Source of the DNA: an uncultured Candidatus Saccharibacteria bacterium
GTDB taxonomy: Bacteria; Patescibacteriota; Saccharimonadia; Saccharimonadales; JALRHH01
Direction of reading: 5' to 3'
Assembly (NCBI GenBank): GCA_964559915.1
Contig: CAZLJP010000001.1
Coordinates: 1,044 to 65,043, forward strand
DNA: 64,000 bases
The notes below the pieces were generated by a model, which ran no database searches, was not told the origin of the DNA, and worked only from the letters and a program-made list of their open reading frames with translations. The position numbers and the translations under genes were made by a program. Below are positions 1,058 to 22,266 of the stretch, piece by piece; the first letter of the stretch is position 1; every line of letters begins with the position of its first letter.

Positions 1058-3378
1058 TCGTTACTAAGATTCTGTAACTTGTACTGGGTGTAGCGTTCAG
1101 CAGCTAGACGAGTTAGTTTGTCATCCTCACCCTTGTTCACAAATGCCATAGCTTCTGTCATTAGTGGATGTACTTCTGCTAATTTTTCGTGCATTTGTAG
1201 TACAAGTTTGCGGTAACCAGGATGTCCCTGGGGGCTGGTTCGGAGTTCGTGGAAATGAAATGCTTCACGGGCATTATATGTTAGCTTCCAGCGCATTTTG
1301 TGGCCCAGCAGGGTGGCGTACTGTGCTTCAAGCTCGTAGCCTTCTGCCTGCAAGTAACTATAGAGTTCTAGACTCAGGTCAAAACAGTTCTCGAAGGTTT
1401 CGGTGAGCCCAGCTTCCTCTACCAGTTCAGGTACTTCATAGCCATAGCGAGGTGTCAGTAGTTGCCAATTGAGATCATCTACCATACGGTGACGTTGTAA
1501 ATCACGAAAAATACCGTAGTCACACACCAAATCCCAGCTATAATGTGCTTTCTCTAGTGCCCTACCTGGACGGTGACGACGGTTAAGACGTTCGCCAATG
1601 TAGGTCTTAAAGATTTCTTCTTTTTTATCGTATGGGAGTTTCTCGGTAGCTTTCTTTAGCTCACTTAGTGATAGATTGCTGTGCTCATACAACATATCAG
1701 GTATCAATTCTAGTTCGTTGCGAGGCCATACGGCTGTCAAGGTAACTGGCTCATTCGCCTCTGTGTGCGCTGCAGGTAATAGCTCTGACGCTAGTTTTGC
1801 GACGGCGCGCTTGGTATTTGCACGGTATGCAATAGTCGCACCACCGCGCTCTGGTTTATCTGCGCGCTCGAGAAAGGTTGGGATGATAGTACGGGCGTGT
1901 TCAAGTAGCTTCTGCCCTGTAATGCGAGCCTCCGGTAGCTCATCGGCAAGGAGGTTCATAATAAGATTTTCGACTGCCTGTCCAGATGCATATATGCCGA
2001 CAGTTGATTTAGTAGATACCGGCAACACAGCCCGAATAGCATCACAGGCCTGTGCACGAGTGGCACCTTGCCAGGCTACATCTTGTTCGGCCTTAGGCAC
2101 ATCTGAGTTAGCACGAACATAATCAGTTAACTGACGTACCATTGACGAGTACTGGTCAAATATCTTGTCCATTACCTCGTTGTAGTGGGTTTTAACCTTT
2201 TTGTTGAAATGGTCTGGTGTGTAGTATTTATATTTGCCGTTTGTATCCTTCTGGTCGAAGTAGATATAGCGAGTTGATTGTTCCAGATATGCTGCTAGAC
2301 GCCCCCATTCAAGCTTTTTAGTAAGCAGATTAGAGGCGTTTTCTACTGTCAGATGCAAACCAACAAGTTGTTGCACCGAATCATCACCATAAGCCGTAAT
2401 AACGCGTTGGAGGAGCTTTTCGTCTTTACCCATGGCATGGGCAAACTCATCAAGCAATGTAATACGCATATCATCACCACGTCGTGACAAACGGGCCATA
2501 GCAGCTGCAATAGTAGTCGGACTCAGCTTGTCATTAAAGACGTATACATCGTCATCGACACTTGATACGGTGCTGCGCAAGAAGTCCTCTCCGGCAGCTG
2601 TTACGGTATAGCCAGTATCTGTTTTCGTAACATATGGGTTTTCAGTCACGACTGACTGTTTTATAGCAGTTTTCGTCTTTTCTGGAAGCAGCGGAGTGAT
2701 AGTTTTCCAGAGCATATCATGAACAGTATCAATAGACAGTAGTTTATCGCCACGTACGCAATCCAGTCTCTGGAAGTCTTTGGGGAATAAATCACACAGA
2801 TTGTCATAGACTTCTACAGAACGGCGCAGGTGGTTGATGTCTGCTTCATGAATATCACGCTTTTTATCCGTGTAACTACGTGCCTCTTTATTATCTACAA
2901 GCTGTTGAGCGGTCTCAGCTGGTACACGCAGAACGAATGACTTGTCAGGGCGTGGAATGCCTAACATCTGGAATTCTAGATTATCAAGCCATATAAAGTA
3001 ACCACGTCGTTCTTCGGCATGTTCAAACTTGGTACCTTGGTGGGCCATATTACTGCCGGTAAAACGATTTGCTAGTACAACCTTACCAGCTGCCAATGCT
3101 CCACGAATATCGGCAGCAGCTTGATACCGATCAAGTGCGTAGAATAACGACCCCGTATAGGGGCCGACTTCTTCGGCAGTACCATATTTGCCATTCAGAT
3201 ATTCGCGCACAAAATAGCTCGATGGCTGCTCGTATTGCGGAAAATCAAATGTTGCTACGTCATAGCCTTCGCTACGAAGCTTATCGGCTAATTTGGCAAA
3301 TTGGGTGCCCTTTCCGGACCCATCAGTACCTTCTATGACAAAGAATGCACCAGCGCGGTTTGCGGTCTCGGTGCTCAT
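1054..3378 (-). CDS. tmk: fusion protein: thymidylate kinase (N-terminal) + two tandem ThyX-like flavin-dependent thymidylate synthase domains
   Basis: 774 aa. Tmk P-loop FFVIEGTDGSGKGTQ near aa 12-26. ThyX-like signatures WGRLAAYLEQSTRY (aa 358-371) and DLQRHRMVDD...LLTPRY (aa 626-645), plus C-terminal NAREAFHFHELRTSPQGHPGYR. Confidence 0.8.
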   Translation of the reverse strand: MSTETANRAGAFFVIEGTDGSGKGTQFAKLADKLRSEGYDVATFDFPQYEQPSSYFVREYLNGKYGTAEEVGPYTGSLFYALDRYQAAADIRGALAAGKVVLANRFTGSNMAHQGTKFEHAEERRGYFIWLDNLEFQMLGIPRPDKSFVLRVPAETAQQLVDNKEARSYTDKKRDIHEADINHLRRSVEVYDNLCDLFPKDFQRLDCVRGDKLLSIDTVHDMLWKTITPLLPEKTKTAIKQSVVTENPYVTKTDTGYTVTAAGEDFLRSTVSSVDDDVYVFNDKLSPTTIAAAMARLSRRGDDMRITLLDEFAHAMGKDEKLLQRVITAYGDDSVQQLVGLHLTVENASNLLTKKLEWGRLAAYLEQSTRYIYFDQKDTNGKYKYYTPDHFNKKVKTHYNEVMDKIFDQYSSMVRQLTDYVRANSDVPKAEQDVAWQGATRAQACDAIRAVLPVSTKSTVGIYASGQAVENLIMNLLADELPEARITGQKLLEHARTIIPTFLERADKPERGGATIAYRANTKRAVAKLASELLPAAHTEANEPVTLTAVWPRNELELIPDMLYEHSNLSLSELKKATEKLPYDKKEEIFKTYIGERLNRRHRPGRALEKAHYSWDLVCDYGIFRDLQRHRMVDDLNWQLLTPRYGYEVPELVEEAGLTETFENCFDLSLELYSYLQAEGYELEAQYATLLGHKMRWKLTYNAREAFHFHELRTSPQGHPGYRKLVLQMHEKLAEVHPLMTEAMAFVNKGEDDKLTRLAAERYTQYKLQNLSND

Positions 3379-18909: not shown

Positions 18910-19815
18910 CTATATGACCGCCCTATCAAATGCCTGGGGCACGGGTGATTCAAATACTTTACGTTGCTTGTTTGGCAGAGTAATCTCAAGTGACTTTGCG
19001 TGCAAAAACAACCTAACTGCCGTCGGACCACGGTAGAATGTATCACCCACGATAGGATGCCCTTGATGCTCCATGTGAACGCGTAGTTGGTGTGTGCGGC
19101 CGGTTACGGGTCGCAACTCCACAAGATCTGTCTTGTTACCACTTCTGAGTACCTCATATTCAGTAACAGAATCCTTACCACCAGGGCTAACATGAAATGT
19201 CTTGGGCTTTTTGGGGTTGCGTACTATTGGCATGTCGATAATGGCATGTGCAGGCTTGAGGTGGCCAGCAACTACAGCCACGTACACTTTCTTGGTTTTG
19301 CGCTGACTAAATTGCTTCTGCAGATAGGCTAAGGCAGCCGGTGTTTTGGCACAGATAATGACCCCACTGGTAGCGCGGTCAAGGCGGTGCACTATACCAG
19401 CCCTGGGGTTATTAGGACTGCCTTTTTCTACGTCCTGCTCCAATATCCAAGCCGGTTTTTGGCCCTCGTTAATTAAATGTTCTGCTAGCCAGGAAGCTAC
19501 CGTTGCCTCTGGATTAAACTCGCCTTTACTGTGTGACAGAATACCAACCGGTTTATCTATCACAACACAGTCATCATCTTCGTACAAAATGGGCAAATCG
19601 ATAGACGGGATGGCTGTCATAATCTCGTAGTTATAGGTCACCTCTATATCATCACCCGGCTTCAGCTTATAACCAGATTTCTCTACTACCTTGCCGTTAA
19701 CCGTCACCTTTCCTTGGTCAATCAGACGCGACGCAGCAGTTCGGGTCAAATCCGGATACATTGCAATAATCCGCATATCCAACCGTTCCGCTCGAGAAAT
19801 ATTCAAATTAGCCAT
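18910..19815 (-). CDS. rluD: RluA-family 23S rRNA pseudouridine synthase (RluD-like) with S4 domain
   Basis: N-terminal S4 domain (RLIDQGKVTVNGK) and catalytic HRLDRATSGVII. Confidence 0.85.
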   Translation of the reverse strand: MANLNISRAERLDMRIIAMYPDLTRTAASRLIDQGKVTVNGKVVEKSGYKLKPGDDIEVTYNYEIMTAIPSIDLPILYEDDDCVVIDKPVGILSHSKGEFNPEATVASWLAEHLINEGQKPAWILEQDVEKGSPNNPRAGIVHRLDRATSGVIICAKTPAALAYLQKQFSQRKTKKVYVAVVAGHLKPAHAIIDMPIVRNPKKPKTFHVSPGGKDSVTEYEVLRSGNKTDLVELRPVTGRTHQLRVHMEHQGHPIVGDTFYRGPTAVRLFLHAKSLEITLPNKQRKVFESPVPQAFDRAVI

Positions 19816-19867
19816 TAAGTACTATTCTAACAGAGATATTTGCATACGTTATGCTAAACTGCAATCT

Positions 19868-20398
19868 ATGAAGTATGGTGAGAAAACACCTATTGAGGAC
19901 AGCTTGGAACAATATTTTGTCAGCATCCATAGTGCATTTGAGCTTAATCCCAGTTTAGAAGTGCAAAGTGAGCAAATTGTTGTAGGTGGTATTTTACGAA
20001 TTTTAAGAACATATAGACTTTCTGACGAAGAGCTAAAACAGATAGCTACAAACGACCAATTCGAAGCTGGCATTGTTACAACCAGAACAAGCCCACAAGA
20101 TAATGACGATCCTGAGTGGGTGCATTTGTCACTGGTGGACAAGGGCCCTTCACCTGATAGTGTAACAACCTACATGCTTGATAAAGCTGTTGGTTTGGGA
20201 CCTACGGAAGAAAAGTGTTTTCGATATTCTTTGGCAAAAATTCTGCCGTATTTAGAAGAAATCGACGATAACAGTTTGGATGATGACTGGTCAGAAGACG
20301 AAGAAGCGTTTGCTGATTTTGTAGATAGTGAAATGACCACTATCACCGGCGAGGACGTAGCAATTTTTGATCGTCTGGCTACTGTTCTATCTAGATAA
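19868..20398 (+). CDS. hypothetical acidic protein (176 aa)
   Basis: The first ATG clear of rluD is at 19868; the track ORF start at 19691 lies antisense inside rluD. Asp/Glu-rich C-terminus. No motif recognised. Confidence 0.45.
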   Translation: MKYGEKTPIEDSLEQYFVSIHSAFELNPSLEVQSEQIVVGGILRILRTYRLSDEELKQIATNDQFEAGIVTTRTSPQDNDDPEWVHLSLVDKGPSPDSVTTYMLDKAVGLGPTEEKCFRYSLAKILPYLEEIDDNSLDDDWSEDEEAFADFVDSEMTTITGEDVAIFDRLATVLSR

Positions 20399-20403
20399 GT
20401 TAC

Positions 20404-21492
20404 TTAACGGAGTCCGACGGCTTTTTGTACTTTGAATAAAGTTATATTTGCCTGTTCGTTCATACGTTCTTCATCTGTTTCAAGTTTTGCCAATAGAGTT
20501 CTGTCGTCCACCGCAGCGAGTTTGGCCTGGAAGGCAGTTAGAAATGGTGCCACGCGGTCAGCTACTGCAGTTTTGAGCGGGCCATATTGCTCTTGGCCTA
20601 TGAATTCCTCTGGTTTACCACCAAATAGCTTCAAAAGGTCTAGTAGATTACTAATACCAGGCTGGTTTTCGGAATCGTACTGAACCTTACCGGCACTATC
20701 AGTAGTAGCGCTAGTAATCTTTTTGCGCGCTACATCTGGTGTATCAGTTAGGAATATCACGCCCTTGCCAGATTCATCTGACTTGCTCATCTTTTTGGTT
20801 GGGTCTGCTAAGTCTTTGATGCGCAGACCCTGGTCTTTGCCAAAAAAGCCATGTTGTTGCTGAACTGCCTTAGGGACCACGAATAGTTCACCAAACTTAT
20901 TATTCATACGTTCGGCTATATCACGTGTAAATTCGAGATGTTGTGTTTGGTCGTCGCCAACAGGCACATAAGTGGCACCGTACAACAAAATATCTGCTGC
21001 CATGAGTACAGGATAATCAAATAGGCCTACACTTACTCGGCTCCTAGCAGTATCGAACATATCTTTTACTGGCTGGGAGGATAGGTTCGCTAAATCTAAA
21101 TTGCCCTTAATTGGTACCTCTTCTATTTGACGAGATTTATCCTTGAACTGGGTCATGCGGGACATTTCACCAAAACCAGTAAAGCTATTCAGAATAATCG
21201 TTAGCTCGCTATGTGCTGGCACATAGCTCTGACGGTAAATATGTACATCTGCATTATCGAGCGGTAAGCCAGCTGCCACATAGACGCGCAGGTTATTCAG
21301 AATGGCCTCTTGGAGCTTGCTGTGGTCAATTGGGGTAGTAAAGCTATGTAAATCAGGCACAAACAAATTAACCTGGTAGTCGCCAGCTTTTTGAGTTGCC
21401 ATATCAACCATAGGTAATAATGCACCCAAATAATTACCAATATGTAGGTCGTTATTTGCCCTGAGCCCCGTGAGGATAACTTGCTTAGTCAT
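20404..21492 (-). CDS. trpS: tryptophanyl-tRNA synthetase
   Basis: Class I motifs LHIGNYLG (HIGH) and KMSKS. The MTKQVILTGLRA start at 21492 overlaps the upstream 72-aa ORF by 8 nt. Confidence 0.93.
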   Translation of the reverse strand: MTKQVILTGLRANNDLHIGNYLGALLPMVDMATQKAGDYQVNLFVPDLHSFTTPIDHSKLQEAILNNLRVYVAAGLPLDNADVHIYRQSYVPAHSELTIILNSFTGFGEMSRMTQFKDKSRQIEEVPIKGNLDLANLSSQPVKDMFDTARSRVSVGLFDYPVLMAADILLYGATYVPVGDDQTQHLEFTRDIAERMNNKFGELFVVPKAVQQQHGFFGKDQGLRIKDLADPTKKMSKSDESGKGVIFLTDTPDVARKKITSATTDSAGKVQYDSENQPGISNLLDLLKLFGGKPEEFIGQEQYGPLKTAVADRVAPFLTAFQAKLAAVDDRTLLAKLETDEERMNEQANITLFKVQKAVGLR

Positions 21493-21703
21493 TAACATTA
21501 AGTATACCCTTATCGGCTTCTAGAGGGTAGGTTCTGAGCGCATATTCTGCCATTTGGCTACTTATATCTCTTTTTGGCTCCATAGCCACGTCATTTTCTA
21601 TCCTTCTTCTATTTATTGCGTTGAGTATTTCTTGGGCAGAGCGTGGGTCATCAGTTACTTCGATGCCCATTCTCTGCAATATGATTCCTGGATTCGTTTC
21701 CAT
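21485..21703 (-). CDS. hypothetical small protein (72 aa) directly upstream of, and overlapping, trpS
   Basis: Strong SD (AGGAG 7 nt upstream of ATG 21703). No motif recognised. Confidence 0.45.
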   Translation of the reverse strand: METNPGIILQRMGIEVTDDPRSAQEILNAINRRRIENDVAMEPKRDISSQMAEYALRTYPLEADKGILNVND

Positions 21704-21723: not shown

Positions 21724-21816
21724 AAAATTTAAAAACCGCCTAGTGGCGGTCTTTTCTATAGGTTCGTGGTGAAGTTATACAAACACACGGAACAGACCGT
21801 CACGGGTAGTGCCGGT
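21724..21816 (-). promoter_or_regulatory. attenuator 2: anti-antiterminator / antiterminator / terminator RNA segments
   Basis: Minus-strand RNA segments: seg1 ACCGGCAC (21809-21816), seg2 GUGACGGUCUGUU (21791-21803), seg3 AAAAGACCGCC (21745-21755), seg4 GGCGGUUUUU (21731-40). 3:4 forms a terminator with a U-run. 2:3 pairs at 9 of 11 positions and excludes 3:4. Confidence 0.55.
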
Positions 21817-21852
21817 AAACCAATACTGCTGTGTTTGCATCTGTTTCATCAT
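21775..21852 (-). CDS. putative 25-aa leader peptide MMKQMQTQQYWFTGTTRDGLFRVFV
   Basis: The ATG immediately follows the TAA of the 70-aa ORF, with AGGA upstream. Its single UGG (21820-21822) lies 3 nt before seg1. Confidence 0.45.
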   Translation of the reverse strand: MMKQMQTQQYWFTGTTRDGLFRVFV

Positions 21853-22065
21853 TTATCCTATTAGAATGCCTGCGTGCTCGAGCGCAGTACGCCCTGCCGC
21901 AATACTGGCTTCCATGATTTCTCTCTCTTGCCTGGCGCTTTCTGTTGCTAGTAATCCACGCTGCAATGCAAGCAGGATGTTTTCTGCTGCCAACTCCTGC
22001 AAGGGGATACCTTCAGCAAGCAGCCCGAGGGCTGCCTCTGATTCGAATTGTTCTATTACTGTCAT
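21853..22065 (-). CDS. hypothetical small protein (70 aa) between the two attenuators
   Basis: AAAGGAA lies 9 nt upstream of the ATG. Ala/Leu/Glu-rich and helical-looking. No motif recognised. Confidence 0.4.
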   Translation of the reverse strand: MTVIEQFESEAALGLLAEGIPLQELAAENILLALQRGLLATESARQEREIMEASIAAGRTALEHAGILIG

Positions 22066-22086
22066 CTTGTTGTATTCCTTTAGATT

Positions 22087-22184
22087 AAAAAACCGCCACC
22101 TTTTCGGGTAGCGGTTTGCTTGTCGTCTTGTGTATTAATTACTGTGTACGTACATAACAAACCGCTACATCTTGCTTGATGTAG
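22087..22184 (-). promoter_or_regulatory. attenuator 1: anti-antiterminator / antiterminator / terminator RNA segments
   Basis: Minus-strand RNA segments: seg1 CUACAUC (22178-22184), seg2 GAUGUAGCGGUUUG (22158-22171), seg3 CAAACCGCUACC (22107-22118), seg4 GGUGGCGGUU (22091-22100) with a six-U run (last two U of seg4 plus four more at 22087-22090). 1:2 is 7 bp, 2:3 is 11 perfect bp, 3:4 is 10 bp. Confidence 0.65.
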
Positions 22185-22228
22185 AACCAGCGCATAGCGC
22201 ACACAAAATTAGTTACGGTTTGTTTCAT
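22139..22228 (-). CDS. putative 29-aa leader peptide MKQTVTNFVCAMRWFYIKQDVAVCYVRTQ
   Basis: The ATG lies 9 nt after the -10 hexamer, so it is near-leaderless. Its single UGG (22187-22189) lies 2 nt before seg1. Confidence 0.5.
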   Translation of the reverse strand: MKQTVTNFVCAMRWFYIKQDVAVCYVRTQ

Positions 22229-22237
22229 AACACTCAC

Positions 22238-22266
22238 ACAGTAGTACTATTTGAGTGACTTGTCAA
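22238..22266 (-). promoter_or_regulatory. sigma70-type promoter TTGACA-17-TACTGT
   Basis: -35 at 22261-22266 and -10 at 22238-22243 (minus strand), 3 nt after the stop of the upstream membrane gene. Confidence 0.6.

Follow-up and report, generated by a model that had tools for sequence, protein, structure and literature searches.

What controls trpS, the gene for tryptophanyl-tRNA synthetase (TrpRS), in Saccharibacteria, a group in which, as in the Patescibacteria at large, genomes are tiny and recognisable regulators few? The locus that raises this question lies in a stretch of 64,000 nucleotides (nt), here called the window, from an uncultured Candidatus Saccharibacteria bacterium (contig CAZLJP010000001.1, assembly GCA_964559915.1). 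Its minus strand reads, in order, promoter, attenuator 1, a 70-amino-acid (aa) open reading frame (ORF) that we call orf70, attenuator 2, a 72-aa ORF (orf72) and trpS. Each attenuator unit has a mini-ORF with a Trp codon and four RNA segments, numbered 1 to 4, that can pair in alternative ways. We consider it likely that both units are classical ribosome-dependent transcription attenuators, and that what they sense is most likely charged tRNA-Trp, possibly together with tRNA-Tyr and tRNA-Phe.

Two units of one leader family

Unit 1 (all window coordinates are on the minus strand unless marked otherwise) begins with a promoter: a -35 hexamer, TTGACA (22261-22266), which starts 3 nt past the stop of an upstream 129-aa ORF, is followed after a 17-nt spacer by a -10 hexamer, TACTGT (22238-22243), which ends 9 nt before the ATG (22226-22228) of mini-ORF 1 (29 codons plus stop, MKQTVTNFVCAMRWFYIKQDVAVCYVRTQ; 22139-22228). 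The predicted sensor codon, a UGG for Trp (22187-22189), is followed by a Phe and a Tyr codon and lies 2 nt 5′ of segment 1, CUACAUC (22178-22184). This is the anti-antiterminator arm, and its duplex with segment 2 has a computed energy of -7.5 kcal/mol. Segment 2 (GAUGUAGCGGUUUG; 22158-22171) is the 5′ arm of the antiterminator, which it forms with segment 3 (CAAACCGCUACC; 22107-22118) through 11 perfect base pairs (bp; -17.5 kcal/mol). By folding, segment 3 is common to antiterminator and terminator: with segment 4 and its U-tract (GGUGGCGGUU; 22085-22100), the 3′ arm of an intrinsic terminator, it gives a hairpin (22090-22117) of 10-11 bp, with a duplex energy of -16.5 kcal/mol.

Unit 2 has the same order of parts but is internal: a promoter of its own was looked for and none was found. 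Mini-ORF 2 (25 codons plus stop, MMKQMQTQQYWFTGTTRDGLFRVFV; 21775-21852) starts directly after the TAA of orf70, with an AGGA in front of it. The UGG that is predicted to act as sensor codon (21820-21822) sits inside Tyr-Trp-Phe, 3 nt 5′ of segment 1 (ACCGGCAC; 21809-21816; family consensus ACCGRCAC), whose duplex with segment 2 is computed at -7.2 kcal/mol. Segment 2 (GUGACGGUCUGUUC; 21790-21803), again the 5′ arm of the antiterminator, pairs with segment 3 (GAAAAGACCGCCAC; 21743-21756) at 12 of 14 positions (-10.0 kcal/mol), and segment 3 is again shared with an intrinsic terminator (21731-21755), the 3′ arm of which is segment 4 and its tail (GGCGGUUUUU; 21726-21740; 3:4 duplex, -14.0 kcal/mol). 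A first-pass annotation of this DNA, made from the letters alone, had proposed these elements. A check of the sequence found those of both units in place on the minus strand, including the UGG that is followed by a Phe codon and stands 2-3 nt before segment 1 in each; the family consensus has the same 3-nt gap. One detail changed: the 2:3 pairing of unit 2 is present, but its extent, first given as 9 of 11 positions, is 12 of 14 (21790-21803 with 21743-21756).

Folding agrees with this anatomy. Both unit regions are more stable than shuffled sequences (z = -2.98 and -3.77), both terminator hairpins fold and pass a terminator scan, and the 2:3 and 3:4 duplexes, which the first-pass annotation had set against each other, were both computed as stable alternatives. 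When a ribosome was represented by masking the RNA at the UGG or at the stop codon, with footprint sizes assumed from E. coli, unit 1 switched between antiterminator and terminator, and so did its orthologue in locus L127. The mini-ORF of that orthologue is MQQIAQNIICTMRWFYGKHFAVAVCSVHLK, and at the position of unit 1 segment 1 it has a different 7-bp hairpin, so that the two 1:2 hairpins differ in sequence and agree in position.

Are the units peculiar to this genome? A tblastn search with the unit 2 peptide gave matches between rpsI and trpS in other Saccharibacteria, and the 17 sites extracted there share one order: ATG, 9-11 codons, UAU UGG UUU ACC GRC ACN, then GUGGCGGUUUGUUC and the stop, followed about 25 nt past the stop by GAAGAGACCGCCAC, a loop and GGCGGUUUUUU, and finally by a strong Shine-Dalgarno sequence (SD) and a variable ORF. 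From 19 sequences a covariance model was built; run on the window and 80 loci, it gave 33 confident matches, in the window and in 30 of the 80 loci. Fourteen of them were not among the seeds, and all 33 lie upstream of trpS on its strand. Within the window the model matches the two units only, unit 1 in its entirety at 22084-22222 (63.6 bits, E = 2.2e-11) and unit 2 at 21727-21855 (120.7 bits, E = 2.8e-24). Among the 72 Saccharibacteria species representatives with enough upstream sequence, 30 have the attenuator between rpsI and trpS; in the other 42, which include Nanosynbacter-type genomes, a structure-agnostic heuristic (a Trp mini-ORF, then a terminator) found nothing but a weak candidate in L063.

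The association with trpS was also seen in a metagenome scan that was not anchored on that gene. The RNA core used for it (TGGTTTACCGRCAC N4-5 GTGRCGG) returned 120 contigs, and the covariance model, run on 100 of these, made a full match in 98. Of the contigs with at least 3.5 kb of downstream sequence, 29 out of 31 have trpS downstream on the same strand. The two exceptions are L159, which has no model match, and L191, which was not model-searched, is high in GC and carries no Saccharibacteria marker genes. Trp codon and trpS are a median of 506 nt apart (range 285-3529 nt). In Rfam scans of the 64-kb window no family, Trp_leader (RF00513) included, reached its gathering score, nor did any match by E-value up to 10; the best sub-threshold match, to Phe_leader (RF01859), scored 19.3 bits against a gathering score of 55 and was on the wrong strand. 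Both units are members of a widespread Saccharibacteria family and not peculiar to this genome.

Three loci labelled Verrucomicrobiia, Limnocylindrales and Pristimantibacillus (L002, L015 and L053) encode TrpRS proteins 65-72% identical to that of the window and have rluD directly 3′ of trpS, as the window does. L002 also has rplM-rpsI upstream and two attenuator copies, and L053 has one copy; all three are probably mis-binned.

Both alternative structures are maintained in evolution. The 13-bp antiterminator, judged on an unfitted MAFFT alignment, is 89.9% paired, versus 39-60% in slid registers, with double changes at 6 pairs, and none of 500 shuffles matches its covariation score; the terminated state (1:2 plus 3:4) is 87.5% paired on the same alignment. 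RNAalifold, run without a hint on an unfitted alignment, returns the 2:3 helix as the consensus structure. In 99 distinct metagenome sequences, in an alignment fitted to the terminated state and not to the antiterminator, the antiterminator is 90.0% paired. The terminated state is 94.7% paired there, with double changes at 10 pairs: the 1:2 helix is 98% paired and the 3:4 helix 92.2%, with compensatory changes at 8 of its 10 pairs. Across both alignments slid registers are 35-62% paired and the antiterminator has double changes at 6-7 pairs; one of its positions, in the metagenome set, is G-C in 73 sequences, A-U in 12 and G-U in 6. Support for a longer antiterminator that continues through the mini-ORF's end is only partial (63.8% paired versus 32-50% in slid registers). 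Conservation of the 2:3 and 3:4 pairings in relatives, which the first-pass annotation had named as a check on its scheme, thus comes to about 90%, with compensatory changes present; the retention of the UGG, another such check, is described next.

For the reading frame and the codons we counted 125 distinct copies. In 114 of them frame 0 holds an ATG-started ORF that spans the UGG column and segment 2 and ends before segment 3; for the other frames this is so in 3 and 1. The UGG stands at the aligned column in 115 of the 125, and most of the others, including window unit 1, have it 1-4 codons upstream; leaders hold one Trp codon, or in a few cases two, and the ATG-to-Trp spacing is 9-11 codons in 110 of the 114. 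Because of 1-nt indels in the 1:2 loop, segment 2 is read as RGG (77 copies), VAV (32) or AWR (5). In all three frames the stop codon comes 16-18 nt after the segment 2 core, that is, past segment 2 and not in front of it, and 21-32 nt before the core of segment 3. Since the frame of segment 2 varies and the stop stays fixed, segment 2 is conserved as RNA; of the ORF, the frame is conserved as far as the Trp codon, and so is the point at which the ribosome ends translation. Conservation extends to the Tyr and Phe codons adjoining the Trp codon: most copies have Y-W-F, unit 1 has W-F-Y and some have FYFFWF (in the window these aromatic codons are at 22181-22189 and 21817-21825).

The start of the mini-ORF has its own regularities. 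A match of at least 9 of 12 positions to TTGACA/TATAAT, with a spacer of 16-18 nt, precedes 70% of 99 distinct leaders but 2.8% of control ATGs, and the family geometry, TTGACA-16/17-TAnnnT, is that of unit 1. Where a leader has such a match, the gap between -10 and ATG is most often 7 nt (48 of 69 leaders; range 6-11 nt), compared with the 9 nt of window unit 1. With transcription starts placed by promoter position, the mini-ORF would typically be leaderless, or nearly so. For unit 2, the lack of a promoter and the junction of the orf70 stop with the AUG suggest that the ribosome is delivered to mini-ORF 2 by termination and reinitiation at UAA-AUG; in L127, too, the orf70 homologue overlaps the next ATG.

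Proposed mechanism and its alternatives

In sum, the units have a conserved leader ORF, a positioned Trp codon, an intrinsic terminator, an antiterminator that excludes it and is maintained, and a characteristic placement of segment 1 and of the stop. From this anatomy, the conservation and covariation, the frame constraint and the promoter geometry, we infer where transcription starts, where ribosomes stand and how the units respond to tRNA charging. Transcription would begin at or next to the AUG of mini-ORF 1, and a ribosome would load on the (nearly) leaderless RNA and trail the RNA polymerase. When Trp-tRNA is scarce, it would wait with the UGG in its A site and cover segment 1, which lies 2-3 nt downstream. 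Segment 2 would be left free to pair with segment 3 as this emerges, the antiterminator would take up the 5′ arm of the terminator, and the polymerase would read on. When Trp-tRNA is plentiful, the ribosome would reach the stop about 17 nt past the segment 2 core and cover the 3′ part of segment 2. Behind this finishing ribosome segment 1 could re-pair with the segment 2 core, the 3:4 hairpin and its U-tract would form, and transcription would stop. In this genome the device would act twice in series before trpS, the ribosome of mini-ORF 2 arriving by termination-reinitiation at the UAA-AUG junction with orf70 or by way of the AGGA in front. The net effect would be a homeostatic induction of TrpRS when the charging of tRNA-Trp falls. 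Attenuation of the trpL/pheM type was also what the first-pass annotation had read from the sequence, and the comparative evidence (UGG, frame, covariation of 2:3 and 3:4, and no T-box) supports it.

Several observations weigh against this reading. The 1:2 hairpins are weak (about -7 kcal/mol), and in unit 1, before segment 4 has been made, the antiterminator is the best fold even without a ribosome, so that termination would require the ribosome to arrive at the stop in time. The antiterminator of unit 2 has an uncompensated A.C mismatch in its core and is weaker than the terminator (-10 versus -14 kcal/mol), and it wins only kinetically: at equilibrium the terminator is preferred even with segment 1 masked, and the antiterminator is the best fold only as long as segment 4 has not been transcribed. 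That transcription and translation are coupled in Saccharibacteria is an assumption. Textbook attenuators have runs of regulatory codons, whereas each leader here has a single Trp codon, and its sensitivity may be low. One locus, L021 (3662-3788, 102.6 bits), has no Trp codon, a TAT (Tyr) replacing the TGG in a leader that reads ...NAYYFTDT.... Finally, the conserved Tyr and Phe codons, which lie outside every predicted helix, are unexplained by a simple Trp-only model; the sensing of all three aromatic tRNAs, or a contribution from the nascent chain, could account for them.

The latter thought leads to an alternative in which the nascent (N/Q)-Y-W-F-T acts as an arrest peptide like TnaC, sensing a free aromatic amino acid or another ligand, with the same RNA alternatives carrying out the decision. 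In TnaC, too, a critical Trp has a Phe after it; here Y/F-W-F/Y is conserved at the amino-acid level, with both TAT and TAC in use and no predicted helix covering it, and the 9-11 codons from ATG to Trp are a tight spacing. The C-terminal half of the peptide, however, is read in three frames, which leaves no conserved residues at a fixed spacing to a C-terminal residue or the stop, unlike TnaC, and the terminator is intrinsic. The conservation of T-(D/G)-T is accounted for by segment 1 pairing, and it is hard to see what a cell would gain physiologically if abundant free Trp induced trpS. We regard an arrest peptide as improbable. It is very hard to credit that the RNA alone is the sensor, as a riboswitch or a T-box-like tRNA binder with the UGG as specifier and the open frame incidental. 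The conserved UGG does lie in an unpaired region immediately 5′ of a helix that can switch, and aminoacyl-tRNA synthetase genes are classic T-box targets (PMC1262725), but with E values up to 10 allowed, Rfam gave neither a T-box nor another family, in line with the first-pass annotation, which had seen no T-box-like element. The 30 or so nt 5′ of the UGG are variable and have no conserved structure, yet frame, ATG and length are kept; moreover, the promoter puts the 5′ end at the ATG, and a tRNA-docking Stem I would not fit into so short an RNA.

The hairpins could also be constitutive terminators or insulators between small genes, the mini-ORF encoding a functional micropeptide and the 2:3 complementarity being a by-product. 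In favour of this, either hairpin makes a good intrinsic terminator by itself, the ORFs that follow have strong SDs of their own, and one L127 copy lacks a terminator. Against it, trpS is essential and no promoter is visible after the hairpins, so that constitutive terminators in front of it would be harmful; covariation links the antiterminator to the terminator arm; the supposed micropeptide is not conserved as a peptide in its C-terminal half; and the attenuator tracks trpS and aromatic-pathway genes specifically. We give this explanation scant credence, and ribosome-dependent attenuation remains the reading that we adopt.

Copies, cargo and neighbouring genes

Some loci have several copies of the attenuator: two each in L002, L169, L114 and L135, and three in L127. 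The closest relative of the window by ribosomal proteins, L157 (about 90% identity), has one promoter-driven unit, then an orf72 homologue and trpS. L127 (oriented 911-1561) repeats the window layout with a unit 1 orthologue, an orf70 homologue and a unit 2 orthologue; the last of these has lost its terminator, and directly behind it come a new consensus promoter and a complete third copy. The attenuator unit behaves as a module that is gained, lost and decaying. A recent tandem duplication in the window was ruled out: the 70-aa and 72-aa proteins are not similar to each other, and what can be aligned between the two units is confined to the part from segment 2 to the terminator. Units 1 and 2 are old paralogues of one family.

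Directly behind each terminator come a strong SD and a variable ORF, and a frequent arrangement is that of the window, a small protein and then trpS. These small proteins are hypervariable, 48-147 aa long and without a Pfam match; among their ORFs are L157 3588-3749 and L127 1087-1299 (both oriented), L007:3838-4008, L017:3729-3920, L072:540-749, L028:2740-2973 and L032:3437-3664. They do not form one family: a 5-member family next to trpS was found, which the window ORFs do not join at E < 0.05. A weak family with the motif LLRxxGIEVxxDDPRxxxEI stands directly upstream of trpS in several genomes, and the orf72 homologue of L157 carries this motif.

The cargo in some genomes consists instead of DAHP synthase (PF00793), prephenate dehydratase (PDT; PF00800) or an apparent chorismate mutase-PDT fusion, placed between attenuator and trpS (L026:3025-3966, L025:449-1552, L080:2824-3762 and, oriented, L119 8032-10099). 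Aromatic-pathway cargo fits a Trp or aromatic signal. A higher content of Phe and Tyr codons in leaders before DAHP synthase or PDT was unsupported in the metagenome set (Mann-Whitney P = 0.55), which is biased by the search pattern. Further cargo includes Asp/Glu racemase, M15 dipeptidase and other genes, and the typical order ends with trpS. The regulated unit is best described as variable cargo plus trpS, not trpS alone.

Two observations on cargo stand by themselves. Aromatic-pathway genes are unexpected in this lineage, which is regarded as being without amino-acid biosynthesis. In L156 (oriented 947-2149), L113, L064:2219-3484, L186 and L188 the first cargo gene encodes a protein of 400-436 aa with no recognised domain, and in L186 and L188 (oriented 2030-3340 and 1662-2972) there is no trpS within the 2.5-3 kb available downstream.

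Taken together, copies and cargo allow a more far-reaching proposal, which we put forward only tentatively: a Saccharibacteria-specific, leaderless attenuator for an aromatic triad, in a modular cassette that captures cargo and duplicates. If so, the charging of all three aromatic tRNAs would be integrated by the adjacent Tyr, Trp and Phe codons, which would tell these epibionts about the supply of amino acids from the host. The cassette (promoter, mini-ORF and terminator, with trpS, DAHP synthase, prephenate dehydratase and small proteins as cargo) would account for the tandem and triple arrays.

The wider locus reads, on the minus strand, rpoA, rplQ, rplM, rpsI, the membrane-like 129-aa ORF, the attenuator region, trpS and rluD. 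In the nearest species representatives TrpRS is about 72% identical, and they share the synteny rplM-rpsI-...-trpS-rluD with the window. The trpS gene (20404-21492; Pfam PF00579, E = 1.8e-54) has its ATG at 21490-21492, and relatives' alignments start at residue 3 of the longest ORF. Its start is overlapped for 8 nt by orf72 (21485-21703), which has a strong SD, AGGAGA, and whose homologue in L157 is 53 aa long and lies immediately 5′ of trpS. Between the two attenuators, orf70 (21853-22065) ends in a TAA that abuts the ATG of mini-ORF 2; its homologue in L127 is likewise 70 aa long (49% identity), is flanked by attenuators on either side and has the same kind of stop/start overlap. Pfam searches gave no match for orf70, orf72 or the 129-aa ORF. 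A 235-aa ORF at 19691-20398 on the plus strand, which may or may not be a genuine gene, is convergent with trpS and has no Pfam match. It shares about 125 nt with the 5′ part of rluD (18910-19815, minus strand) and has a short tblastn match in L141 on the opposite strand.

Relation to known systems

Our literature search found no description of this attenuator in Saccharibacteria, Patescibacteria or the Candidate Phyla Radiation, and no cis-regulatory amino-acid sensor for Saccharibacteria or Patescibacteria in the searchable literature. This is a new attenuator family of a known type, in a phylum for which we found no earlier report of such regulation. A conserved ribosome-dependent attenuator would imply that transcription and translation are coupled in Saccharibacteria and that initiation can be leaderless, and it would offer a measurable readout of how these bacteria sense the supply of Trp or aromatic amino acids from their host. 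The RNA family, absent from Rfam, is now represented by about 125 distinct sequences and a covariance model, and the small proteins and aromatic-pathway genes co-regulated with trpS are flagged for study.

With trpL and pheM (pheST) of E. coli the family shares a short translated leader with cognate codon(s), the 1:2, 2:3 and 3:4 alternatives and an intrinsic terminator before structural genes; like pheM, it has an aminoacyl-tRNA synthetase gene as its target. Unlike them, it has a single Trp codon flanked by Tyr and Phe codons and no run, a predicted leaderless start in place of an SD-led one, a stop about 17 nt after segment 2 where theirs is before or within it, and a weak 1:2 hairpin, and there is no sequence or Rfam relationship between the two.

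Closer in target are the classical attenuators that Seliverstov et al. (2005, PMC1262725) predicted for Streptomyces in front of trpS (trpS2) and leuS. There, too, a gene of the trpS class stands under a Trp-codon leader peptide and a terminator/antiterminator pair. The trpRS1 attenuator of S. coelicolor has reportedly been studied or shown experimentally, by Vecchione and Sello in J Bacteriol in 2010. Phylum and sequence differ, and so does the gene, in Streptomyces an auxiliary, antibiotic-resistant paralogue and here the trpS of the conserved rplM-rpsI-trpS-rluD locus. The Actinobacteria, to which Streptomyces belongs, include the known hosts of cultivated Saccharibacteria.

The predicted leaderless start has a parallel in the polycysteine small-ORF attenuators of mycobacteria (Canestrari et al., 2020, bioRxiv 10.1101/834739). 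There the small ORF starts at the 5′ end of the transcript, as the mini-ORF of the family described here would do, or nearly so, and its translation reports amino-acid supply to the operon genes downstream, again as would be the case here. The mycobacterial ORFs have runs of Cys codons and are said to act mainly without a canonical intrinsic terminator switch; the Saccharibacteria leader, by contrast, has one Trp codon and a clear terminator/antiterminator pair. In aim, finally, the family resembles the T-box of Firmicutes, since an aminoacyl-tRNA synthetase would be induced on uncharged cognate tRNA through a choice between terminator and antiterminator. The T-box senses the tRNA directly by RNA-RNA contacts and without translation, whereas the leaders described here match no T-box model and conserve a translated frame.

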